Shown here one piece after another: positions 2,633 through 64,000 of a DNA stretch of 64,000 nt (positions within the stretch are counted from its first letter, which is position 1; each line of letters starts with the position of its first letter). The notes below the pieces were generated by a model that searched no databases, had not been told where the DNA came from, and saw only the letters and a list, made by a program, of their open reading frames with translations. Both the position numbers and the translations under genes were made by a program. This DNA is from a virus (taxonomy: Duplodnaviria; Caudoviricetes), in the IMG/VR virus record IMGVR_UViG_3300042988_001200; one strand, 5' to 3'.

Positions 2633-5131
2633 ATGCCAGTTTATTCTTATCAAATGAGACATGGACTACAGGGTGATATCCCTGGAATTCCAGCTCTAGA
2701 CGCTTATGAACCTCTATTCACTACTGATAGTAAACAGCTATGGATTGGTCTACCAGGCGGTAATACGCCTCCTTACACAGGAGCTATAGTTCCTAGATTC
2801 TATGATGCAGACCTTAATACTTCTAGTGGTACAACTGCAGGACCTACTGACCATCTAGGTAGACCAGCTACTACTAAATGGGTACAAGACCTTCTATCAG
2901 CTACCTCTACTACACCCCCAGCAGGTATAGCCTGGAGGACTCAACCTAACACCTTTAGTGATGATAATACATTCCAGAAGTGGCCTACTATAACAGATAC
3001 TCTATTACCTGTTACTGACTCATCTACTAAGGTTCCTACTACTCAATGGGTTAAGAATGCTATTACAAGTGCTATAGGTACTGTTGGTAATGTAGCTTAT
3101 AGAGACCAGAATAATACCTTCTCTTTAATTAATACCTTTAACTCCACAGCTCTATTTAATGGAGCTTCTACTTTTAATGGTCCTTTAGTCTCTACTTCTA
3201 CTGTTGACCTAACTAATGCTATATGGACTAAGGTTAAGACTATACCCACTAGCACTATCCCAGCAGAGGATGCAGCTTCTACTTTATATGTATGGAACTC
3301 CCATACTGATGATTCTAAACTTAAGAAGGCGACTACTCCACCAGCTAGTAGTAATGATACTCATATAGCTACTACTGAATGGGTAAGGGCTAATGTATCA
3401 GGTTCTAACCTATTAACCTCTAATAACACTTGGACAGGTACTAATACTTATGACAATCTAGTAACCTTTAACCAAGTTCCTTTATCAGTAGAACCTCCTT
3501 TATCAGATAATTCTAATAAAGTACCTACTACCTCCTGGGTAAGAAATACTATTAACTCTTTAGCTACTGGAGGGGCCCCTGTTCTAACTAAGAGTTTGAT
3601 TAGTAATGAATATAACACCCTTCTATGGAGTTCTGGAACTGTATCTATAGGTGGAGTTAATTATCCAGTAACTGCTGGTAGTTATGCCTTTACAGCAGCT
3701 TCTACAGCTACTACTACTGGTACTACTTATTATGTAAAAGCTAGTCTATCCGGGGGTACAGTCTCAGTACCAGCTCCTACTACCTCTCCTACAATATCAG
3801 CTACAGAGGTGTTACTAGGCTCTTTAACCTTAGTAGATGTAACAGCTTCTCCCCCAGTAGCAGGTGGTCCAGTAAGGGAGATTAATGGAGTTATTAATAG
3901 TCCCCCTAACTATGCTAGAAGAGATTTAGATAATGTATTTACAGCAGGTAATACATTTAATGGTACTAATGTACTAGCAGGACCTACTACAGCTTCTTAT
4001 TCTATCCCTTCAACTAGTAATGATACAACTGTTCCTACTACAGCCTGGGTTAAATCAGCTCTAAGTAATGTAGGTAACTCCTTCTTCCAATTAGATGGTA
4101 GTAGTAATTTAGTTCCTATCCCTGGTTCATTCACTGGTTGTGTTGATTTAAGTAGTGTATGTGTGAAAGCTAGGACCCCTATTGACCCCTCATCTAGTGA
4201 TGATTCAGTAGCTACTACAGCCTGGGTACAAGCTGTATTATCTAATCAACCAGTTAATCCAGTAGTATCTCTAGTAGGAACTCCCTCTAGTACCAGCTTC
4301 CAAGTTACATGGACTTCTGGTTCTGTTGCTCTACCTTCTGGACTTAATTGTGCTGGAGCTAATTGTGATGCTGGAGCTGGTCCCGGAGGTACAGATTTAT
4401 GTAATGTTAGTCCCCCTACTTCACCGGTTACAGTAGCTATGCCTGCTCCTGGTACATCCATTAGAAGGTATTTCTATGTAGCTTATGGAGATTGTCAGGT
4501 TCTTAATGATACAGTGGCACCAGACCCAGATACAGTAGGTAAGGTTATAGCTATAGCTGATGTTAATAATACTAGTCCCTCTTCTGTAGTAATCACTCCT
4601 ATACAATCAGGTGGATGGGCTCCTATAGATAGTCCTTTCTTTACTGGCAATCCCCAGGCTCCTACTCCAGCTACAGGAGATTGTGATAACTCTATAGCTA
4701 CCACTGAGTTTGTATGTGAGATGGTTAATAATCTATTAACAGCTCCTTGCTCTGGAACTATAACATATCCTGATATTATTCAAGTAGGTAATCCCTCTTT
4801 ACTTATCAATGTAACTAGTGGACAGGTTCCTAAACCCGGAACTAGTGCGGGTAACTGTGTTGTAGTACCATTATCAGCTCCAGTAGCTGTAGTAGCCAAC
4901 TCCACTGAGTATTGTTGGATAAGATTCTCTGATTGTAAATTAGTAGCCTCTACTCAACCTCCAGCTTCTAATATTGGTTTCCTATTAGCAACTGTAGTTA
5001 CTAATGCTACTAATATTGTTTCTATAACTAAAGCAGCTAATACAGTAGTGGAAACTAAAATATCTACTTGTTATAAGGTAGGATTTGGTGGGAGACTTAT
5101 ATATGTTCCAGGTCCTAATTGTTGTGTTTAA
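2633..5131 (+). CDS. tail fibre protein with repeated D(S/N)xxxATTxWV/FV motifs
   Basis: About 8 copies of the tail-fibre repeat (e.g. DNSNKVPTTSWV, SNDTHIATTEWV, DCDNSIATTEFV); Thr/Ser/Pro-rich. Confidence 0.8.
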   Translation: MPVYSYQMRHGLQGDIPGIPALDAYEPLFTTDSKQLWIGLPGGNTPPYTGAIVPRFYDADLNTSSGTTAGPTDHLGRPATTKWVQDLLSATSTTPPAGIAWRTQPNTFSDDNTFQKWPTITDTLLPVTDSSTKVPTTQWVKNAITSAIGTVGNVAYRDQNNTFSLINTFNSTALFNGASTFNGPLVSTSTVDLTNAIWTKVKTIPTSTIPAEDAASTLYVWNSHTDDSKLKKATTPPASSNDTHIATTEWVRANVSGSNLLTSNNTWTGTNTYDNLVTFNQVPLSVEPPLSDNSNKVPTTSWVRNTINSLATGGAPVLTKSLISNEYNTLLWSSGTVSIGGVNYPVTAGSYAFTAASTATTTGTTYYVKASLSGGTVSVPAPTTSPTISATEVLLGSLTLVDVTASPPVAGGPVREINGVINSPPNYARRDLDNVFTAGNTFNGTNVLAGPTTASYSIPSTSNDTTVPTTAWVKSALSNVGNSFFQLDGSSNLVPIPGSFTGCVDLSSVCVKARTPIDPSSSDDSVATTAWVQAVLSNQPVNPVVSLVGTPSSTSFQVTWTSGSVALPSGLNCAGANCDAGAGPGGTDLCNVSPPTSPVTVAMPAPGTSIRRYFYVAYGDCQVLNDTVAPDPDTVGKVIAIADVNNTSPSSVVITPIQSGGWAPIDSPFFTGNPQAPTPATGDCDNSIATTEFVCEMVNNLLTAPCSGTITYPDIIQVGNPSLLINVTSGQVPKPGTSAGNCVVVPLSAPVAVVANSTEYCWIRFSDCKLVASTQPPASNIGFLLATVVTNATNIVSITKAANTVVETKISTCYKVGFGGRLIYVPGPNCCV

Positions 5132-32991: not shown

Positions 32992-35250
32992 CTAATTGGA
33001 TGAATGATATATATGTATTTCTTTATCTTTTATGGTTATATATAAGGTAGATATATCTAAATGAGTAAGAATATAATCTACAAGTAGGTCTTTAATAGAA
33101 TTAACTATCCTTCCAATTTCTCTTGCTCCATAATTAAGGTTAATTTTACATGTTATTAAATGGGTGATAACCGAGGGTTCTATCTCTAATTTATACTTAA
33201 TAGCCTCCTTTAACTCTTCTAATCTAAGAGCCATAATAGAAGATAAGGATATTAGATTTAATGGATTAGCCGGTAGAATCTCATCTATTCTATTAAGGAA
33301 CTCTGGTGTAAAGTATTCTTTAAGAACACTTAACTTATTAGAACTAATATTGGAAGTAGATAGTTCAAACCCCAAAGATGCCGAGTTAGAATAAGAACTC
33401 CCTATATTAGTAGTTAAAAAGATGTATGAATTGTTAAAGTATATCTTTCTACCTACAGAATCTGTAACAAACCCCTCATCTAGTATTTGTAATAGAACAT
33501 TATAAATAGAGGGATGGGCCTTTTCTATCTCATCAAATAGGATGATACAGAAGGGGTAGTTCTTTACATTAGAGAAGATAAAAGATTGGTTTTCATAACC
33601 AATATACCCAGGAGGAGAGCCTATAAGTTTAGATATAGAGTGAGATTCCTGAAACTCTGACATATCTATTTGGATAAACTGAGCAGGGTTAGATAGTAAT
33701 AACTTAGATAATTCTTTAACTATATAAGTTTTACCTACCCCTGTATTACCACATAGTAGGAATGAGCCTCTAGGCTTAAGTTTGGAATAAAGGAAACTTC
33801 TTTTAATACAAGAGGAGATTTTATTAATAATATCCTCTTGACCTACTACTCTTTTCCTTAGATTAGACTCTATATCCTTAAACTTATTGTAGGTATCTAA
33901 AGGGTTTTTATTAATAGGAACTTGAGTTATAGATTCTATAGTTTCATAAACTAAGGACTCATCTAACTCTGGAAGATTAACTATAAACTTCTGTACCTCT
34001 TCATACTTATCTTCTTCAATAAGAGAATAATACTCCTTTAAATGTTTATTAGGGGTTTTATTCTTTATCTTTAACTTACTACCAGCCTCATCTAGTACAT
34101 CTATAGCTTTATCTGGATAGTTCCTATTTGTTATATATTGACTGCTATTAACTATTACCTTAAGGATAGAGTCAGGTACTATCATTCCATGATATCTCTC
34201 GTACTTAGTTCTATTTCCTCTAAGAATCTCTAGAGTCTCTTCCTTACTACATTCTTCTAGAGGGATAATATTAAACCTTCTAGTAAAGGCTTTATCCTTT
34301 TCTATATTTAATTTAAACTCCCTATAGGTAGTAGCACCTATACATTTTAATTCACCTCTACTAAGGGCAGGCTTAAGTAGATTAGATAAATCTAAGGAAC
34401 CCTCATAGTTACCTAGACCTACAATATTATGAATCTCATCTATAAAGAGAATAACGCTAGGATTAGACTTACAGTATTTAATAAGTAGAGCTACTCTCTC
34501 TTCTAACTCCCCTCTAAACTTAGTACCAGATATTAAAGCTCCAGTATCTAAAGATACAATTCTAGTATTGTCTAAAGGAGGGTATATTCCAGATACTACT
34601 AATTGAGCTAATCCCTCTACTAACTGAGTCTTACCAAAGCCAGCTTCCCCTAGTATAAGAATATTACTCTTAGTCTTTCTTAATAAAGATTTAACTATAG
34701 AGTCTAGTTCTTTAGTTCTACCTATTAGGGGATCTAGTTCATTCTTCTCAGCTTTTAGAGTTAAATCAATACAGAAGTCTTCAATAGATGTAGGAATAGA
34801 GCTAGATACAGTAGTAACTAATAAGCCTTCTTGTAGAAGAGTAACAATCTGTTCTTCTATAGCCTTAATATCTACATTAGAGGTAAAGGCTTTTTCAAAG
34901 AAGGATAGATTATTATTACTTTTAAGTACATGAACAAGGGCTAAGAATATAGACTCAGGTTCTATATGCTCTAGATTAAATCTGTTACTTATTTCCTCTG
35001 CTTGTTTTAGACATATATGTATATACTTAGAATATTGATTAGGGAAAGGATTAAAATTTATTCCTGGAATATTAATTAAATAATTAGTATCTAAGTTATT
35101 CTTCTTTAAAATGCTAGATATTTTAGAAGACCCTTCTTGTAATAATCCTATAAGTAAATGGTTAAAGCTAACAGAGGTGTTTTGACTATTAGCAATACTC
35201 TTAGCTATACTAAGAACCTTATCAGAACCTTGAGATAGATTTAGAGACAT
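32992..35250 (-). CDS. clpC: ClpC-like AAA+ unfoldase (start probably MSLNL at 35250)
   Basis: Clp N-domain; LDPLIGRTKE; GEAGFGKT/ILFIDEIH; PDKAIDVLDEAGS; GNTGVGKT/LFDEIEKAHP; LGF ClpP-docking loop; YGAREI. Confidence 0.93.
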   Translation of the reverse strand: MSLNLSQGSDKVLSIAKSIANSQNTSVSFNHLLIGLLQEGSSKISSILKKNNLDTNYLINIPGINFNPFPNQYSKYIHICLKQAEEISNRFNLEHIEPESIFLALVHVLKSNNNLSFFEKAFTSNVDIKAIEEQIVTLLQEGLLVTTVSSSIPTSIEDFCIDLTLKAEKNELDPLIGRTKELDSIVKSLLRKTKSNILILGEAGFGKTQLVEGLAQLVVSGIYPPLDNTRIVSLDTGALISGTKFRGELEERVALLIKYCKSNPSVILFIDEIHNIVGLGNYEGSLDLSNLLKPALSRGELKCIGATTYREFKLNIEKDKAFTRRFNIIPLEECSKEETLEILRGNRTKYERYHGMIVPDSILKVIVNSSQYITNRNYPDKAIDVLDEAGSKLKIKNKTPNKHLKEYYSLIEEDKYEEVQKFIVNLPELDESLVYETIESITQVPINKNPLDTYNKFKDIESNLRKRVVGQEDIINKISSCIKRSFLYSKLKPRGSFLLCGNTGVGKTYIVKELSKLLLSNPAQFIQIDMSEFQESHSISKLIGSPPGYIGYENQSFIFSNVKNYPFCIILFDEIEKAHPSIYNVLLQILDEGFVTDSVGRKIYFNNSYIFLTTNIGSSYSNSASLGFELSTSNISSNKLSVLKEYFTPEFLNRIDEILPANPLNLISLSSIMALRLEELKEAIKYKLEIEPSVITHLITCKINLNYGAREIGRIVNSIKDLLVDYILTHLDISTLYITIKDKEIHIYHSSN

Positions 35251-37298
35251 AGGGATAATAAATCTTCTGGATAGAAACAACTAGATAAACTTAGATTAAC
35301 CCCATATAGTTCATCACATAAAGGGATTAGTAATATAGAACCTGGCTTATGAATAGTATTAGTTATTTCATTTATTACTATTTTAATATTAAAACTATTA
35401 AGCACCCTTATGATTTCTGGATTGTTTATTTCTAATATGCAATATAAGAGTTGAGACATTACAGCTATCTCTATTATGAAATTTCTATTATTAGCCTCAT
35501 GGTTAGAAGTAATTATCTTAATGAAATCCACTTTAGATATATTTATAGAATTATTTATATTAGTAAAATCTTCTATATCTATATCTTGGTTATTTATAAA
35601 CTCATCTATATGCTCATATATAGATATAAGGGATAAAAGCCCTTCACAGATAGACTCTAACTCTTTGTATGAGTCTATATAGAGATTCTGTGTAGCTCTA
35701 GTTAAAGCTACATATATTAGATTTAGCTCCTGAATATGGTCATTATATTTATTAGTTGGTCTAAATAGAATATCTGCTGAAGGAACTATATACCAGACAT
35801 TCTTTGCTTCTGCTCCTTTAGCTCTATGGATAGAACTAAGAATAATAGCATTCTTACTTGGTTTACATAATTCCTCTACATATTTCTCTATATAGGAGAC
35901 ATCTATGTTCTCTTTTATGTATAAATATATATACTCTATTAAACTATTACAACAATTAAAGTAGTCTATTAAAGTATCTAAACTAATAGTAAATAGTTCT
36001 TTAGAACTTGTATTATTCTGTTTTATACAATCGTGATTATACTTATAGAAACCACTTAATAAGTTCTTATACTCATTTAAAGAGTACGTTTTATAGTCTT
36101 GTAACTTGTTATACTCTAAAGCTAGTCTAAAGAATCTACTAATAGAGATACTTAAATCTGTACATCTTATATATATCTTCTTACCTTTTGATAATAGTTC
36201 TAAGCCATATTCTACTAATGGATAGTTATATCTACTAACAATAAGGTCTTTACTCTTTACTTTATTAACTATAAATTCTTTATTAAAGCCTTTTACTACA
36301 CTCCCTTGTTTAGGGTTAGCGGGTAGCATTTCTATCTTAACTAGTTCTTTAACTAGTTCTATATGACTATCTGGACATCTATAACAATATGAAAGGGGGA
36401 GTTGAATAGTATTAAAGCTCTCTTTCATAATCTTCCAAATAGAAGGTTCAGCTCCTGCAAATGCAAATATAGACTGGTTATAGTCTCCTAATAATATGAT
36501 TTGACTACCATTATTAGTAAATTTCTTATATATCTCTAACATTAATAGAGAGGAATCCTGAGCTTCATCTACTATTAGATAGTCTGTGTGAGTTGGTTCT
36601 AGGTTTAAATCAATAGAAAGTTCTAGTAATTGAGTGAAGTCTAGGATTTTATTATTAGCTTGAGTCCTTCTTAATTGACTAATATATCTAATACATTTAC
36701 ATATAAATTTAATATAAGGATTTATATATTCTAACTTTAAGCCATATTTATATATAACAAAGTAGATGTTTTCATAGGTTATAGTTAATCTATTTATTCT
36801 TAGATAGTTATCTATTTGTTTAGTTGCTTGTTTAAATATATTAATATGAACATTAATATCCTTTCTTTCTTGTTTAGTTATATTAGAAGAAGGGTCTATT
36901 CTTTCCTTTGTATATATATAACTATAAAGTTCTTGATTTAAAGATTCATCTTTAAGGAAGGAATTAACGAACTCTGAAGTCCTATCTTGAATATCTATAT
37001 CACCTAATACCCTTTTTAATAACCCATAACATAGACTATGGATAGTATTTATCCTTACATTATTTAATCCTTTAATCCTTGTATCCTCTTTTAACTGTTC
37101 AGCTATATGTTTATTAAAAGCTAGAATCTGTATCTTTTTACCGCCTAAAGCTCCACATAGACCTATGATTTGAGTAGTTTTACCTACTCCTGCATTAGCA
37201 TTGACTTGAATATTATTGGTTAAAGCCTCTTGAAATATAGTTAATTGATGACTATTCCAATTAATAGCAGTTAGATAATTAGAAGTCCAATTATTCAT
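35241..37298 (-). CDS. UvrD/Rep-like superfamily 1 helicase
   Basis: ANAGVGKTT, LAFNK, TIHSL, IVDEAQD, GDYNQSIFAFAGA, LSYCYRCP, SSIHRAKGAE, YVALTRA. Confidence 0.92.
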   Translation of the reverse strand: MNNWTSNYLTAINWNSHQLTIFQEALTNNIQVNANAGVGKTTQIIGLCGALGGKKIQILAFNKHIAEQLKEDTRIKGLNNVRINTIHSLCYGLLKRVLGDIDIQDRTSEFVNSFLKDESLNQELYSYIYTKERIDPSSNITKQERKDINVHINIFKQATKQIDNYLRINRLTITYENIYFVIYKYGLKLEYINPYIKFICKCIRYISQLRRTQANNKILDFTQLLELSIDLNLEPTHTDYLIVDEAQDSSLLMLEIYKKFTNNGSQIILLGDYNQSIFAFAGAEPSIWKIMKESFNTIQLPLSYCYRCPDSHIELVKELVKIEMLPANPKQGSVVKGFNKEFIVNKVKSKDLIVSRYNYPLVEYGLELLSKGKKIYIRCTDLSISISRFFRLALEYNKLQDYKTYSLNEYKNLLSGFYKYNHDCIKQNNTSSKELFTISLDTLIDYFNCCNSLIEYIYLYIKENIDVSYIEKYVEELCKPSKNAIILSSIHRAKGAEAKNVWYIVPSADILFRPTNKYNDHIQELNLIYVALTRATQNLYIDSYKELESICEGLLSLISIYEHIDEFINNQDIDIEDFTNINNSINISKVDFIKIITSNHEANNRNFIIEIAVMSQLLYCILEINNPEIIRVLNSFNIKIVINEITNTIHKPGSILLIPLCDELYGVNLSLSSCFYPEDLLSLCL

Positions 37299-50713: not shown

Positions 50714-51142
50714 TTACATAGGGGGGAAGTATTCTTTATCTGCTTTAAATGCTACTTGTTTATTATCTAATGAGCAAAATTCATCATTACAACCTTCATT
50801 TTCATTTACCCAATTAGATATAAAAGTTACTTCTTCTGGAGAATTAATGTTAATTTCTTTACCTAAATACCACCACTTTCCCTCCACCTTAATAATAGTA
50901 ATGGTCTTTTTATCTAAGGATTCTTCATTAAATTCATAGCTATTTACTAGTTTAGAGTTCTTTAATATACTATCTAACCTATCTTTATATTTAGGTTCTA
51001 GAGAAAGTATTACTTCTTTACTTGTATGAAAAAGTTCATCTTTATTAATAAACTGTAAATTCTCTAATAGAATTATTAAAGAATATAAAGAGGAAATACC
51101 TCTTCTAGTCTTAATCTTTACTTGCATATGTCTATTCCTCAA
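50714..51142 (-). CDS. hypothetical protein (last gene of the Ubl cassette transcript)
   Basis: 142-aa ORF with CxxxxC near the C-terminus. Confidence 0.55.
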   Translation of the reverse strand: MRNRHMQVKIKTRRGISSLYSLIILLENLQFINKDELFHTSKEVILSLEPKYKDRLDSILKNSKLVNSYEFNEESLDKKTITIIKVEGKWWYLGKEININSPEEVTFISNWVNENEGCNDEFCSLDNKQVAFKADKEYFPPM

Positions 51143-51437
51143 TAGGGTTTACTTCAGATAAAGGAGTGGTTAACTCTTTATATACTTTATCAACTTTAGG
51201 GTTCTTATTATATTTAAAACCTTTAAGAGCTTTAGTTAAATTAATTATTTCCTCTTCTTGAAAACTCTTAATATTAACTGTCTTACCTCCAAATGTATAT
51301 TTACCTAACTTCCTATCCCAAGCATCCTCTAGAGCTTTATCTACTTTAGAGGATTCATTATTTAATTCCTTAACAGAGAACCTTTGTAAAGCCTTATTTT
51401 CTGCACTATTACTCTTAGATTTATTAGTCTTAGACAT
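51132..51437 (-). CDS. hypothetical protein
   Basis: 101 aa; strong AAAGGAG RBS inside the E1 3' end. Confidence 0.6.
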   Translation of the reverse strand: MSKTNKSKSNSAENKALQRFSVKELNNESSKVDKALEDAWDRKLGKYTFGGKTVNIKSFQEEEIINLTKALKGFKYNKNPKVDKVYKELTTPLSEVNPIEE

Positions 51438-51448
51438 CTATTTCTCCT

Positions 51449-52144
51449 TTATTTAATATCTAAATGAACTTTATCTAAACTATTAACTACTCCTTTATTA
51501 ATATCAAAAGACATTAGTTCATAGAAGTAACCATTAATAATATTATACAGAGTATTAAGCGTGAGGGAAGCTGCCATTAAATTAGCACAGATAATCTGAG
51601 TATTAGTCTCCTTTTGTAATGAACATCCCCTATCTCCAGGAATCCTATCTGTAGGTTTATTAAGACTAGGATATAACTCTAGGGGATTGGTTCCTATGGA
51701 TTTACCATTTATATAAGCCCAGGTTATTACTTGTCCATAATCTAACTCATTACCAGGAGTAATGAATATAACATCTCTATTAGACTCAGATATAGCTTCT
51801 ATAACAGCTTTTCTACTAGCCTGATTATCTACACAAGCTATACAAAGGGTTAAAACACCAGAGTCTCTATTACTTAGAATATTAGAGTATACCTTTTTAT
51901 TAACATAAGTTATATGTGAATAACAAGATATATCTAAATCTAATATCTCTTTTTGTAATGGATTAACTTTATTAAATGAAATGCTAGAAGGAAAGAAACC
52001 CTGTCTTTCTATATTATTCTCCTCTACTTTATCTGCATCATATAAATGAACTTCTATATAGTTCATGTACTTTTTTAATAGTTTAGCCATTGGTATAGCT
52101 AAATAAGAGCCGGTTCCACCACATCCAATAAGGTCTACAAACAT
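51449..52144 (-). CDS. ThiF/E1-like ubiquitin-like-protein activating enzyme
   Basis: GCGGTGS, DADKVEENNIERQ, NKV, CVDN, GNELDYGQV, catalytic Cys in RGCS, NLMAA. Confidence 0.9.
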   Translation of the reverse strand: MFVDLIGCGGTGSYLAIPMAKLLKKYMNYIEVHLYDADKVEENNIERQGFFPSSISFNKVNPLQKEILDLDISCYSHITYVNKKVYSNILSNRDSGVLTLCIACVDNQASRKAVIEAISESNRDVIFITPGNELDYGQVITWAYINGKSIGTNPLELYPSLNKPTDRIPGDRGCSLQKETNTQIICANLMAASLTLNTLYNIINGYFYELMSFDINKGVVNSLDKVHLDIK

Positions 52145-52171
52145 GTTTACTCTCTTAATATGAAAGGAAGA

Positions 52172-52209
52172 TAGAGTTTAGTATCTATAAAGGTAAATAC
52201 TAAACTCTA
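52172..52209 (-). terminator. 13-bp stem-loop between the Ubl and E1 genes
   Basis: TAGAGTTTAGTAT-12 nt-ATACTAAACTCTA, followed on the minus strand by TCTTCCTTTC. Confidence 0.65.
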
Positions 52210-52215
52210 GGTTCA

Positions 52216-52623
52216 TTAGGCTTTAACAGCTACTTTTGTATATAAAGTATAGGTAGCTCCCACTTTAACGGGTTGAGACTTGTCCTTTACAATGACTCCA
52301 TCCTCCTTTATATTGACAATATTATCCTCAAAGTAAAGAGATTCTGATGCTTTCTCAATTAAATCCTCAATGGTAAGACCCTCTACTTCTTCTATATCAT
52401 ATTGGATTTGTTCTCCTAATGAAAAGGTGACAGTAGTTACAGTAGTCTTAGAGGTAGATTCTTCCATTCTAGAGGAAGAAATATTATCAACCATTACCTC
52501 CATTTCTTCATTAGAAATAGGTTTATCTAATGAGATAACTTCTGGATTAGTGTCTTTTAAAGAAGAATCTAGTTTATTTAGTAGAGAAACGGTCTTTTGA
52601 ATAATAGTTTTAACGATGCTCAT
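52216..52623 (-). CDS. ubiquitin-like (beta-grasp) protein with N-terminal extension
   Basis: C-terminal ~75 aa: TTVTFSLGEQIQYDI...GLTIEDLIEKA...IVNIKEDG...VKVGATYTLYTKVAVKA; lies between JAB and E1; start MSIVK at 52623. Confidence 0.65.
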   Translation of the reverse strand: MSIVKTIIQKTVSLLNKLDSSLKDTNPEVISLDKPISNEEMEVMVDNISSSRMEESTSKTTVTTVTFSLGEQIQYDIEEVEGLTIEDLIEKASESLYFEDNIVNIKEDGVIVKDKSQPVKVGATYTLYTKVAVKA

Positions 52624-52624
52624 A

Positions 52625-53455
52625 TCAATACTCCACAAATTTATACTGGTTATCTAACAACAAATCTTCTATGTCAAATAAGGCTATACTTCCATATTTA
52701 TTCTCCATTAACTTAAGAAAAGTGTCTAAATCCTTCTTTAACTCTGGATTAATAGTCCTAGATTGAGTCTTAAAGATGAAGGTATTAATAGGTTTACTAG
52801 GCTTATTTCCTTTAATAAAAGTAGTTGTTAAAGGATTAACTAGCTGTTTATATAGAGGAGAAATGCTTATATTAGGAATATAAGTCTCTTCTATTGGTAA
52901 TAAAAGTAATGGATTAGATACAATAAACCTTCTATTGAACTTAGTAATAGAAGGTAGAACTGAATAATTATTGTCCTTTATAGAGTGGATAAGTATATGA
53001 AACCCGGGGGATTTAAGCTCTGAATCATCATCTATAGAAGAAAAATCTCCTTTAATACCAGTAGGATGTAGATGACTATCTCCTACCATTATATAATTAT
53101 CACTGGTGTAATCCTCTAATAAAGCCTCGGATTCTATATCAAATGCTTTAAAACTTAGTCTAGTAGTAGAAGAAAGAGTGACTTGCTGCTCTGGAATTAC
53201 AATTCTCCACTTATCTAACTCTTGATTATATAGAATAACTGAGCTTATTTCTAGACTTAAGGAGTTATATTCCTTAAAAATAGATACCATTCTATGCCAT
53301 AAATCTAGAGGAATCTTATTAATAGGAGGTACTAATGTAAAGAGTTCTACTACTTGGTCATCTAAACCATCAGGGTCTTCTATCTTTCTATAACAAGTTC
53401 CCCAATATGAACTATCTAATTTATAACTACCTAGAGTCTTAGTCTTTATATACAT
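52625..53455 (-). CDS. JAB/MPN+ metallopeptidase (deconjugase)
   Basis: LEISSVILY (Glu), WRIVIPEQQVT, GDSHLHP...FSSIDD (HxH-x7-SxxD). Confidence 0.88.
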   Translation of the reverse strand: MYIKTKTLGSYKLDSSYWGTCYRKIEDPDGLDDQVVELFTLVPPINKIPLDLWHRMVSIFKEYNSLSLEISSVILYNQELDKWRIVIPEQQVTLSSTTRLSFKAFDIESEALLEDYTSDNYIMVGDSHLHPTGIKGDFSSIDDDSELKSPGFHILIHSIKDNNYSVLPSITKFNRRFIVSNPLLLLPIEETYIPNISISPLYKQLVNPLTTTFIKGNKPSKPINTFIFKTQSRTINPELKKDLDTFLKLMENKYGSIALFDIEDLLLDNQYKFVEY

Positions 53456-54220
53456 CTATTCCTCTTCATCTTTATACTCATCTTCTGAATCATAGTCATC
53501 CTCTTCAGTATTTGTATAATCCTCTAACTTCTCCCATTCTATTGTTAAGGATTCATCAGACTTATATGCTTCATATTTAGTAAATATTTTCTCTAGAATA
53601 GCTTCTAAAGAGTCAATATCATTAAAGCCATCTAAATTAAATAGACTATCCCAGTAGATATCGTATAACTCTTTATGAGTGTATTCATCTATATCTATAT
53701 TATCACCAAAGCATATCTGATTATCTGCCATTCTATTGGGTAATGGAAGAAAGTAATATTCGCCTCTTATACAAGTAGTTATATAGAACTTACTTTCTCC
53801 AGATTCTTTATCATCTAAATACCAGAACTCATGTATAGGTAATCTAAATTCTATAGTTGTAATAATATCTTCTGGTTCTAGTTTTCTACATTTACCCTCT
53901 AATACAAATGAAATATCTCTCTCATAGGATTCCTCTAGAGAACATATATAACTCTCTTTTTTTAATAGAGAGAACCTTGTATTTAAATCCTTTATATAGG
54001 GTTCTAATTTATTGATTAAAATCTCATCAATCTCATTAATTCTACAATAATTTCTAATTATCTTTAAATTTAAATCATTTATACTCTCTTTAAAGTTAAA
54101 CCAATTATTGAACTTACAGTATTTACATTCTTTGTTTTTAATATCTCCAGTATCTCTATTAATTATTTTAATAGTTTTTACTTGCTCTCTATAAATTTCT
54201 ATTAACTCAGGATTTGACAT
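53456..54220 (-). CDS. prokaryotic E2-like conjugating enzyme with acidic tail
   Basis: FRLPIHEF...YFLPLPNRMADNQICFG (catalytic Cys)...YWDSLFNLD; start MSNPEL at 54220. Confidence 0.75.
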   Translation of the reverse strand: MSNPELIEIYREQVKTIKIINRDTGDIKNKECKYCKFNNWFNFKESINDLNLKIIRNYCRINEIDEILINKLEPYIKDLNTRFSLLKKESYICSLEESYERDISFVLEGKCRKLEPEDIITTIEFRLPIHEFWYLDDKESGESKFYITTCIRGEYYFLPLPNRMADNQICFGDNIDIDEYTHKELYDIYWDSLFNLDGFNDIDSLEAILEKIFTKYEAYKSDESLTIEWEKLEDYTNTEEDDYDSEDEYKDEEE

Positions 54221-54238
54221 CTTTATACCCCTTAAAAC

Positions 54239-54266
54239 AGTAGGAGTTAGGGGTCTAACTCCTACT
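54239..54266 (-). terminator. intrinsic terminator after hli
   Basis: AGTAGGAGTTAG-4 nt-CTAACTCCTACT followed by GTTTT on the minus strand. Confidence 0.8.
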
Positions 54267-54275
54267 TTATACAAT

Positions 54276-54428
54276 TTAATGAACAATTATTAGCTTAATA
54301 AGATTACCAAATGGACCAGATAGAGTTACTAATTCTAAGAATAGTAGACTAATAAACCCTATCATTGCTAATCTTCCATTCACTAATTCAGCAGTATTAT
54401 CAAATATAAATCTAGGTTTAATCTTCAT
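54276..54428 (-). CDS. hli: high-light-inducible protein (Hli/SCP), not in ORF track
   Basis: Hand translation MKIKPRFIFDNTAELVNGRLAMIGFISLLFLELVTLSGPFGNLIKLIIVH; contains the AExxNGRxAMIGF chlorophyll-binding motif. Confidence 0.92.
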   Translation of the reverse strand: MKIKPRFIFDNTAELVNGRLAMIGFISLLFLELVTLSGPFGNLIKLIIVH

Positions 54429-54563: not shown

Positions 54564-54992
54564 CTAAACTCCTAGTTTACAGATAATAGAGGAAGGAATC
54601 TGGTAATTAATAAGAGTCTTTACAGTATTCCAATTACCCCCTCCTAGACCACAACCTATTTTATAAGGGATATAAACTTTAAGATTTAACTCTTGGGCTA
54701 TTTCATTAACTAACCCTAATCCTTTAGATAGAGCTTTATAGTCTGTATGTATCCCTGTATTACCATAGGTATTTTGCCCAATTAGAGATACTATTACTAG
54801 GCTCTCTATTCTAGTAGTAATAATATCTCCCATTTCTAGATTACCTACTTGTGATTTATAATCTATTTCTACTTGAGGATATTTAGTTTTAATGGATAAA
54901 GCTAGACCTTTACCCATTACTCCTTGTTTATTAACCTGATGGACGATGATTCCTTCTTTAATGTCTAAGATATTCTTCTCTATGATTTCCAT
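54564..54992 (-). CDS. macrodomain (Poa1/OARD1-like ADP-ribose hydrolase)
   Basis: IVHQVNKQGVMGKGLALSIK...TDYKAL...IPYKIGCGLGGGNW. Confidence 0.9.
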   Translation of the reverse strand: MEIIEKNILDIKEGIIVHQVNKQGVMGKGLALSIKTKYPQVEIDYKSQVGNLEMGDIITTRIESLVIVSLIGQNTYGNTGIHTDYKALSKGLGLVNEIAQELNLKVYIPYKIGCGLGGGNWNTVKTLINYQIPSSIICKLGV

Positions 54993-55324
54993 TAAAGACC
55001 TTTTATTAATTGGATATAACCTTTATTTAATTGAATATAGTTGTTTAGAATTGTATTTAGTAACTCTATAAGTTGCTCTTTAGAGGCTCTATCTATACAA
55101 CTTTCAAAGGTTTCTTTTATATCTTTATCTTCAGTATTCTCATAGAATTTACCTATACTCTTAACAAAGTATATTATCTTTAGCTTCCTATTCTCTCTAT
55201 AATAGTTCTCTAAAGTCTCAATTACTAATTGTTTTAAATCCTCTCTATTAAGATTTCTGGCCTTTAAATTATATGAAGCAATCTTAAACTGCTCTTCTAA
55301 AGTGAGATTTAAGGTAGATTCCAT
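54992..55324 (-). CDS. nblA: phycobilisome degradation protein NblA, apparently two fused copies
   Basis: LNLTLEEQFKIASYNLKARNLNREDLKQLV matches NblA LSLEQQF...MSxEQ; the second half TFESCIDRASKEQLIELL...YIQLIK repeats the pattern. Confidence 0.75.
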   Translation of the reverse strand: MESTLNLTLEEQFKIASYNLKARNLNREDLKQLVIETLENYYRENRKLKIIYFVKSIGKFYENTEDKDIKETFESCIDRASKEQLIELLNTILNNYIQLNKGYIQLIKGL

Positions 55325-55830: not shown

Positions 55831-55935
55831 TTACTTAGATTCCTTATTCTTAATATCTTTAATCTCAACCATCTCAGAGGAGTTTCTAGATTTATAGTTT
55901 CTAGATTTATCTTTATTAGACTGTTCTTCTTTCAT
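55831..55935 (-). CDS. 34-aa small protein, not in ORF track
   Basis: MKEEQSNKDKSRNYKSRNSSEMVEIKDIKNKESK; ATGA overlap upstream and abuts the next ATG. Confidence 0.5.
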   Translation of the reverse strand: MKEEQSNKDKSRNYKSRNSSEMVEIKDIKNKESK

Positions 55936-59474: not shown

Positions 59475-60047
59475 TTATGGGTTTTTACATGTTGAAATAA
59501 AGAACTTGGGAGATACTTCTCTTGTTAACCATACGGTTTTAGGCTTTGTCTCCCAAAATAATAACCCCTCCTCTTGCATTAATTTACTGTTAATACTAAC
59601 TATATAACTAGGTAAATTAACTTTTCTACCATTTCTATCTCCTATTTGTCTGGCTGATTCTCTCTTAGTAGAAAGGTGAACTAGATATCTGGATATAGGT
59701 AATATACCTTTTTCTTTTATATCTTTAACTCTATCTTCGGTTAATCCGTGATATAAAATAGGGGGTGGAGTTTTAGGTTTATCTAATATTGGATAAGGAA
59801 AACTATGACCATAACAAGCTCTAATAATAGTGTTATTCCTTTCAAATCTCTTATTATTCTTAATGAAACTGGTTATATCCTCACTAGTTATATCTTCTAA
59901 ACCTATAATCTCATTAATTAATTTAGTAACTTCTTGTACATTAAACCACCCTCCCTCATTAGTTTTATTACCACAGTGTCTTAATATATAACATAAAGAT
60001 TTAGATAACTTAGTTAATTTAGTTTTAGTAGCATCTTTAATTGTCAT
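59475..60047 (-). CDS. kptA: RNA 2'-phosphotransferase (Tpt1/KptA)
   Basis: KLSKSLCYILRH, GGWF, KRFE, IRACYGHS, ILYHG, GILPISRYLVHLS. Confidence 0.92.
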   Translation of the reverse strand: MTIKDATKTKLTKLSKSLCYILRHCGNKTNEGGWFNVQEVTKLINEIIGLEDITSEDITSFIKNNKRFERNNTIIRACYGHSFPYPILDKPKTPPPILYHGLTEDRVKDIKEKGILPISRYLVHLSTKRESARQIGDRNGRKVNLPSYIVSINSKLMQEEGLLFWETKPKTVWLTREVSPKFFISTCKNP

Positions 60048-62976: not shown

Positions 62977-64000
62977 TTAAGTCTCTAATTGTTTACATCT
63001 AGAACAGAGTTTAGTAGATTGATTATTAACAATAGTCTCATATAAATCCACCTTATTCCAACATCTAGGACATTTATTCTTCTCGCTTAAGGAGATTGAA
63101 AGTTCATTAATAGAGATAGAAAATAACAATTCACTTACTCCTAGATAGCAACTGATAAGTTCTTTAGAGAGGTTATCTAGAGATAAAGTCTGTACTAAAT
63201 CAATAGGGAACTCTACCTTTAAATCTAGTTTAGACTTAGCCTCTTTATTAGTTTTATACCTTTCAAAGGTAAGATTCACTTCATCTCTAGTGGGGTTAAG
63301 AGTATTAAAATCATAGACTTGTTCTAGAAGATTAAATTCTACAGGGTTCTCTAGAAGGTTAGAGTCTAGATAAATACTAGTTTCATTTACTAGACTAGGA
63401 CAAATGGGTTCTAATACTTTAATAAAACCCTGGAGTAAATAGAAAAGAACATATTGACATCCTACCCTTTCATTACTATTAATGCCATCAATATATAATC
63501 TATCCTTAGAAAGATTACTATAAGAAGACATAATCCTCTTTAATTCTTGTATTGAATTGATAACTAAATGAAAGTTATAGTAGTTATACTCCTCATTACA
63601 GGACTTTAATTCTTCATTAAACTGTTGAATAATGAAGTTATCTAGAGGAGTATAGAAACTAGAAGGATAATTAGAAGGTTTAAAGTCTTTAATATTACCC
63701 AGAATGAATTTAATAATGTTCCTAAAGTCATTATATAGAGACACCATTTGAGTTTCTACTGTCTCTGATAAGATAATATCTTTAGTGAAGTCTTGGTTTA
63801 GAACTAGTAATCTTAAGATATCAGAGGAATAAGTCTTTAATAAATCTAGGGGATTAGTAACATTACCCTTAGATTTACTCATCTTATTACCCCTTTCATC
63901 TAGAGTAAATCCATGTACTAGTAGTTTAGAGAAGGGAATCTGTTCCTTTAGTGCATAGGTGATAATTAAAGATGATTGGAACCATCCTCTATATTGGTCT
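62977..64000 (-). CDS. ileS: isoleucyl-tRNA synthetase (bacterial type 1), 5' truncated by window
   Basis: Frame stays open past the ORF-track start: DQYRGWFQSSL...VHGFTLDERGNKMSKSKGN (KMSKS); anticodon domain LSKDRLY; C-terminal zinc finger CPRCW...LCSRC. Confidence 0.93.
   Translation of the reverse strand, partial: DQYRGWFQSSLIITYALKEQIPFSKLLVHGFTLDERGNKMSKSKGNVTNPLDLLKTYSSDILRLLVLNQDFTKDIILSETVETQMVSLYNDFRNIIKFILGNIKDFKPSNYPSSFYTPLDNFIIQQFNEELKSCNEEYNYYNFHLVINSIQELKRIMSSYSNLSKDRLYIDGINSNERVGCQYVLFYLLQGFIKVLEPICPSLVNETSIYLDSNLLENPVEFNLLEQVYDFNTLNPTRDEVNLTFERYKTNKEAKSKLDLKVEFPIDLVQTLSLDNLSKELISCYLGVSELLFSISINELSISLSEKNKCPRCWNKVDLYETIVNNQSTKLCSRCKQLET

Follow-up and report, generated by a model that had tools for sequence, protein, structure and literature searches.

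A phage gene encoding a putative tandem of two diverged NblA units in one chain

Genome context and gene content of the locus

The window analysed here is a 64,000-nucleotide stretch of DNA from a tailed phage (Duplodnaviria, Caudoviricetes; IMG/VR record IMGVR_UViG_3300042988_001200) with a large, AT-rich genome (~29% GC). It encodes tail fibres, a class II RNR, helicases, a sigma factor and a PrsW protease. A tightly packed minus-strand operon in this window includes a gene for a protein resembling NblA, the adaptor through which the light-harvesting antenna is marked for breakdown (Table 1). This is the only NblA-like reading frame among the 420 six-frame ORFs of the window. The stop codon of its upstream neighbour, a gene for a 165-aa protein, lies 8 nt ahead of its ATG, and the last base of its TAA is also the first base of the ATG that opens the downstream macro-domain gene (TAATG at 54990-54994). 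From this one-base stop/start overlap, the NblA-like and macro-domain genes are probably translationally coupled. The hli gene follows two genes downstream, and its product carries the Hli motif E-x-x-N-G-R-x-A-M-x-G-F.

Table 1. Coordinates of the NblA-like gene, its parts and its neighbours in the window
Feature	Position	Strand	Details
Tandem NblA gene	54992..55324	minus	110 codons + TAA stop
NblA unit 1 core, residues 2-38	55211..55321	minus	Matched or predicted by Pfam, NCBIfam, PDB, hhalign, local HMMs, AF2
Junction/linker, ~residues 53-65	55130..55168	minus	Low pLDDT; no HMM columns align
NblA unit 2 core, residues 71-108	55001..55114	minus	Matched or predicted by hhalign, local HMMs, Pfam second stretch, MAFFT, AF2
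21-nt in-frame tandem duplication inside unit 2	54998..55039	minus	18/21 bases identical
Macro-domain gene	54564..54992	minus	Pfam Macro 30 bits; PHROG 335 E 1e-29
hli, 50-aa high-light-inducible protein	54276..54428	minus	Chloroa_b-bind 23.1 bits (cut-off 22.3); PHROG 178 E 7e-6

The macro-domain protein shares 39% identity with a protein of the Microcoleus phage My-WqHQDG, and the adjacent helicase is 38% identical to its counterpart in the same phage and 33% identical to that of the Microcystis phage Ma-LMM01; these two genes are the whole basis of the kinship. The hli gene is the main sign of a cyanobacterial host. Neither the class II RNR nor the Clp ATPase, also considered as host markers, was informative. 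Sequencing runs containing this DNA are labelled as freshwater, freshwater sediment and subsurface metagenomes, the last label, borne by one run, being odd for the phage of a phototroph and counting against the explanation favoured below. The hli gene, the helicase and macro-domain kinship and the freshwater runs together form the setting expected of NblA carriers, which are phycobilisome-bearing cyanobacteria, red-algal plastids and their viruses. Thus, this uncultured freshwater phage probably infects cyanobacteria, and a mat-forming benthic cyanobacterium such as Microcoleus would be a suitable host.

The phage groups three gene types, nblA-like, macro and hli, pairs of which also occur side by side on cyanobacterial plasmids. 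An nblA gene adjoins a macro-domain gene on plasmid p057_G of Nostoc sp. C057, and another adjoins a chlorophyll a/b-binding (Hli-type) gene on plasmid pB of Chroococcidiopsis sp. CCNUC1. This grouping may be coincidental, or the block may have been acquired from a host.

Several other minus-strand genes were recognized in the window. A ThiF/E1-like protein is encoded just downstream of hli (51449-52144, Pfam 35 bits; neighbours at 51132-54286), and genes for protein tagging and degradation are abundant in the window, comprising this protein, the NblA-like adaptor and a Clp unfoldase. The minus-strand block of the macro-domain gene also contains a gene for a Tpt1/KptA RNA 2'-phosphotransferase (59475-60047, Pfam 79 bits). 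The ORF at 62977-63882, which runs off the edge of the window, matches Anticodon_1 (class I tRNA-synthetase anticodon-binding, 52 bits) and the end of the catalytic domain, and may represent a phage aminoacyl-tRNA synthetase.

A real and constrained coding sequence

The earlier note had described an ORF of about twice the normal NblA length at this locus. The ORF proved to be real, and its 110 residues correspond to 2 x 55. It contains a single Met codon and hence no internal start. Four contigs (Logan and JGI) from separate freshwater samples, the longest of 204 kb, encode an identical 110-aa protein. In contigs from other runs, the ORF is without indels and differs by eight SNPs, of which six are synonymous and two change a residue (R23I and the conservative L88I). 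With 19% synonymous changes expected from random single-base substitutions in this ORF, six of eight corresponds to P ~9e-4, or to P 0.024 when only transitions are counted, the contigs that gave these SNPs being of low depth. Because the protein is identical on four contigs, free of indels and altered by mostly synonymous SNPs, the fusion is no assembly artefact, and the gene is a real, constrained coding sequence. Among the sequencing runs that contain its DNA, no RNA run is listed.

A population length variant was seen just outside this gene, where run X4 carries a 15-nt insertion (AGTTTCTAGATTTAT) at window position 55880, in the region of a 34-aa ORF upstream of the 165-aa gene.

Sequence evidence for two NblA-like units

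The whole 110-aa protein matched the Pfam family PF04485 in two stretches with 30.7 bits (E 4.5e-7), above the cut-off of 25, and its precomputed annotation is likewise PF04485. The best stretch aligns residues 6-39 with profile positions 1-34 of 50, and the presence of the second stretch gives the whole protein ~7 bits more than the N-terminal half alone, which reached 23.3 bits. The NCBIfam model NF045916 matched residues 6-38, at 23.6 bits when the N-terminal half was searched and at 22 bits with the whole protein, far from its equivalog cut-off of 100 bits, which means that the protein is no orthologue-level NblA. A phmmer search of PDB sequences returned NblA of S. elongatus (3cs5, E 0.0023) and of Anabaena (1ojh, E 0.17). 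The N-terminal half was aligned by hhalign with an NblA alignment at a probability of 65% (E 6.2e-5) and scored 12-18 bits with local NblA HMMs, including 12.8 bits with a model of the 11 Nostoc-type plasmid NblAs alone. In this unit, the N-terminal signature reads L-T-L-E-E-Q-F and the loop N-L-N-R-E-D-L. Helix 1 is present, as is the first half of helix 2, the remainder of which (residues 39-52) has diverged, with only R-E and I-I kept.

The C-terminal half alone (residues 56-110 or 58-110) was reported neither by Pfam and NCBIfam nor by phmmer against PDB sequences, and the speed filters of HMMER would drop a weak single match of this kind. With hhalign, residues 58-110 matched an alignment of 14 NblAs at a probability of 83% (E 8.9e-6), pairing residues 71-108 with NblA positions 16-53 over 38 ungapped columns. 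MAFFT also places NblA helix 2 on this unit. In it, helix 1' is shortened and matched by its end, the loop reads A-S-K-E-Q-L and helix 2' has its full length; the family C-terminal signature Y-x-x-L-I-K is present and the N-terminal L-x-L-E-Q-x-F is missing.

Local HMMs were run with all filters off and were built from 16-21 NblAs of few clades, drawn from a set with 11 proteins of cyanobacterial plasmids, the NblA of phage S-TIP37, Ma-LMM01-type phage NblAs and four further viral NblAs from IMG/VR. The C-terminal half scored 15.5-21 bits with three mixed-set models and 10.8 bits with the Nostoc-type set alone. Composition-preserving shuffles (3000-5000) reached maxima of 9-11 bits for this half (9-13 bits across both halves), which leaves an excess of 5-11 bits with the mixed sets and of less than 2 bits with the Nostoc-type set alone. 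The best of 798 55-aa segments from other ORFs of the window gave 5.5 bits, and the C-terminal half lies 5-15 bits above all such segments from this AT-rich phage. By eye, this half most resembles the Ma-LMM01-type NblAs. It remained at 21 bits after these had been dropped from the HMM, and a model of the five Ma-LMM01-type NblAs alone gave ~2 bits for either half; hence, this clade is not the source of the C-terminal signal.

At the sequence level, an NblA-like character is thereby supported for both halves by custom-profile scores that are significant and above all shuffle maxima. The repeat of the S-x-E-Q...L-L...Y-x-x-L-I-K pattern that the earlier note had read in the second half is present and goes beyond chance, given its hhalign E-value and HMM scores above those of the shuffles. 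The same note had placed the two NblA-like regions at residues ~4-49 and ~68-110. Two such regions do exist, with the boundaries corrected to the matched residues 2-38 and 71-108. Its proposed search of each half with PF04485 gave a score just below the cut-off for the first half and no report for the second, and by itself would look negative because the curated libraries miss the C-terminal half alone.

Anatomy and origin of the tandem

Unit 1 matches NblA positions 2-38 and unit 2 positions 16-53, so that positions 16-37 are matched twice. This doubling implies a duplication and rules out a plain insertion into a single NblA. Of 22 aligned residues, 4 are the same in both units, and BLASTP of one half against the other produced no alignment; therefore, either the event is old or already different nblA genes were fused. 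The sequence thus points to an old internal duplication, or to two adjacent and unlike nblA genes that became joined, as the origin of the protein.

Sequence decay is centred on the junction and affects the second half of helix 2 in unit 1 and the first half of helix 1' in unit 2. The junction itself is the region least like NblA and least confidently modelled. Per chain, the N-terminal signature survives intact once, in unit 1, and the C-terminal signature once, in unit 2, a motif distribution that shows an apparent division of labour between the units.

Unit 2 also contains a local repeat. A 21-nt segment is duplicated in frame and encodes Y-I-Q-L-N-K-G (residues 96-102) followed by Y-I-Q-L-I-K-G (residues 103-109), thereby doubling the C-terminal motif. 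Contigs from two other samples (runs X3 and X4) span this duplication without gaps, and by the similarity of its copies it is recent.

Predicted structure

AlphaFold2 was run on the single sequence and produced a best model of moderate confidence (pLDDT 67.6, pTM 0.60), with pLDDT values of 51-58 for the other four models. Using an NblA alignment as input was rejected, since MAFFT splits each NblA over both units and would create an artificial pairing. Helices were predicted at residues 9-23, 27-44, 50-57, 66-77 and 82-99, with pLDDT below 50 across residues 48-61, where the short helix 50-57 is located. The model predicts two helix-loop-helix hairpins connected by a linker of ~12 residues. 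The two-unit NblA layout proposed in the earlier note is supported for both halves at the level of sequence, and in the predicted secondary structure two helix-loop-helix units are seen.

The ESM Atlas model of the protein gave a TM score of 0.74 (by target) against a cluster of 57-aa NblAs. The fold searches, which compare single chains, produced no match at E 0.001 or better with Foldseek against the PDB, where no NblA chain was listed, and only generic helical matches (Z ≤6.4) in the wide VIA-align search, from which an NblA chain was also absent. Complex prediction of residues 1-57 with residues 58-110 gave a score of 0.15 (mark 0.34), a result that speaks neither for nor against binding.

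Comparison with known NblA proteins

NblA proteins have ~60 aa, take the form of four-helix bundles built from dimers in crystal structures and act as adaptors of phycobiliproteins to ClpC (PMC7966870). The homodimeric NblAs of Nostoc PCC 7120 (1OJH) and S. elongatus PCC 7942 (3CS5), both of PF04485, share with the two phage units parts of the NblA signature in the right order and, according to the model, similar helix-loop-helix units. In contrast to these proteins, which consist of two ~60-aa chains, the phage protein has two units in one 110-aa chain, each of them without one of the two terminal signatures.

Two different NblA units that are required together also occur in Synechocystis PCC 6803, whose NblA1 and NblA2 are asymmetric partners encoded by separate genes, whereas the phage units are covalently joined, which fixes their stoichiometry and excludes mixed dimers. 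Baier et al. are said to have described NblA1/NblA2 in 2014 as an obligate heterodimer.

Among phages, Ma-LMM01 gp005 (79 aa), the S-TIP37 NblA (78 aa) and the marine G1/G1b pairs are likewise phage-borne and accompany host-derived photosynthesis genes. These pairs come from some marine phage MAGs with two divergent nblA genes, one of which (G1b) is inactive alone (bioRxiv 10.1101/494369). The NblAs of Ma-LMM01, S-TIP37 and the other sampled phages have a single unit, in contrast to the two units per chain found here. The surroundings also differ, as the nblA of Ma-LMM01, an ordinary single one, is flanked by nrdA and nrdB and the present gene is part of a helicase-macro-hli block. Neither Ma-LMM01 nor My-WqHQDG, when searched, contained a relative of the tandem protein.

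All of the ~100 NblAs sampled from phages, plasmids and metagenomes have a single unit and 55-94 aa, in a sample that is small, skewed to few clades and represented on the cyanobacterial side by plasmid-borne members. This agrees with the statement of the earlier note that cyanophage NblAs are normally single-domain. Relatives of the 110-aa protein other than itself were found neither by a word search of 5.8 billion proteins at near and shorter lengths, nor by exhaustive phmmer against 1.8 billion representatives, nor in IMG/VR with the protein or the alignment as query. In INPHARED, tblastn gave only chance Felix-O1 matches (E 0.02 or worse), and megablast with a 5-kb query gave no relative. 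An IMG/VR search with the macro-domain neighbour returned itself or nothing. As the full protein is without a homologue in the databases searched, the tandem layout has no comparative support. The sole hint of similar proteins is a 113-aa viral cluster (score 0.76) found in an ESM Atlas search with the whole protein, 18% of whose members carry PF04485; the same feature search with residues 58-110 gave no usable match. A full-text literature search for tandem, fused or duplicated NblA retrieved nothing relevant. The tandem two-NblA layout was met in no other sequence or paper searched, and it is known from one orphan gene of one uncultured phage population.

Proposed function and alternative explanations

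The protein is likely to be a single-chain tandem NblA whose two diverged units act as an NblA "heterodimer" driving phycobilisome degradation. Its bundle within one molecule, the partners it would bind and its role in bleaching are inferred. The two units would pack against each other and so reproduce within one chain the four-helix arrangement of a normal NblA dimer, and the result would be an obligate 1:1 asymmetric "heterodimer", independent of concentration and unable to mix with host NblA. In an infected freshwater cyanobacterium with phycobilisomes, the tandem NblA would bind phycobiliproteins and deliver them to a ClpC-type unfoldase and ClpP. Dismantling of the antenna would then free amino acids for the phage, for which the single-unit phage NblA of S-TIP37 offers a precedent. 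Previously, phage NblA was found to shorten the infection cycle, and viral nblA to reduce oceanic light harvesting (PMC12695635). The rationale given in the earlier note, independence from host NblA partners, is weak, since the usual phage NblAs, being homodimers, need no host NblA either. The gain from the fusion would rather lie in its fixed 1:1 asymmetry and its insulation from mixed dimers.

It is unlikely that the tandem protein is derived from NblA and has acquired a new function, either as a decoy or dominant-negative on ClpC or phycobiliproteins that blocks chlorosis, or as an adaptor for non-phycobiliprotein substrates. As a decoy, it would block host-triggered chlorosis and let light harvesting continue during infection. 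Such a role would suit a phage that also has hli, which is commonly interpreted as a means of sustaining photosynthesis. The decay of half of each unit's signature and the distance from every functional NblA (22 bits with NCBIfam against the equivalog cut-off of 100) point in the same direction. However, the signatures that are retained form one complete set per chain, as expected of a working adaptor. Two precedents for altered activity are on record in viral NblAs, namely the inactivity of G1b alone (bioRxiv 10.1101/494369) and the cleavage of non-antenna proteins upon viral NblA expression (PMC12695635), yet all viral NblAs so far active in tests promote degradation. Inhibition itself has no direct support from any computed result.

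A single NblA domain (residues 1-50) followed by an unrelated amphipathic helical tail, with the resemblance of the C-terminal half due to chance or convergence, appears distinctly improbable. It would account for the failure of curated models, the PDB sequence search and the ESM Atlas feature search to recognize this half alone, and for the failure of the two halves to align to each other. It is difficult to reconcile with the 38 ungapped hhalign columns at E 8.9e-6, which run in the correct order (end of helix 1, loop, helix 2), with HMM scores above all shuffles and all background segments, with the persistence of the signal after removal of the most similar NblA clade, and with the ~7 bits that the second stretch adds to the Pfam score of the whole protein. 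Pairing of the tandem NblA between chains, as a domain-swapped dimer or higher oligomer forming a multivalent adaptor with no self-contained pseudo-dimer, is very unlikely: the short linker with its predicted helix 50-57 could keep the units apart and the five AlphaFold2 models disagree (pLDDT 51-68), but the pTM of 0.60 of the best model suggests one compact fold, with no direct counter-evidence to such pairing.

The window also encodes a ClpA/ClpC-type double-AAA+ unfoldase of 762 aa (32992-35280, minus strand) with two Walker A sites (residues 211 and 511) and a weak Clp_N match. Its residues 636-638 are L-G-F and directly follow T-T-N-I-G, the place of the ClpP-docking loop in ClpA and ClpC. 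No clpP gene was seen in the window. This unfoldase could be a partner of the NblA-like adaptor. It would be a long shot to assume that the single-chain NblA and the phage's own unfoldase, in place of host ClpC, make up a self-contained antenna-demolition module in which only ClpP is needed from the host, and that the fusion and the loss of one motif set are adaptations to this private partner.

Implications

The known layouts of viral nblA genes are extended by a new one in the tandem NblA. It could be used as a compact, stoichiometry-independent antenna off-switch in engineered cyanobacteria. Which subunit surfaces of an NblA dimer touch the antenna, which touch ClpC, and whether each site has to be present twice are questions that the phage protein could help to answer. 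It represents a natural, ready-made asymmetric mutant in this respect, with the N-terminal signature in one unit and the C-terminal signature in the other. If the tandem NblA bleaches cells, one copy of each site would suffice, and both sites could then be mutated independently.
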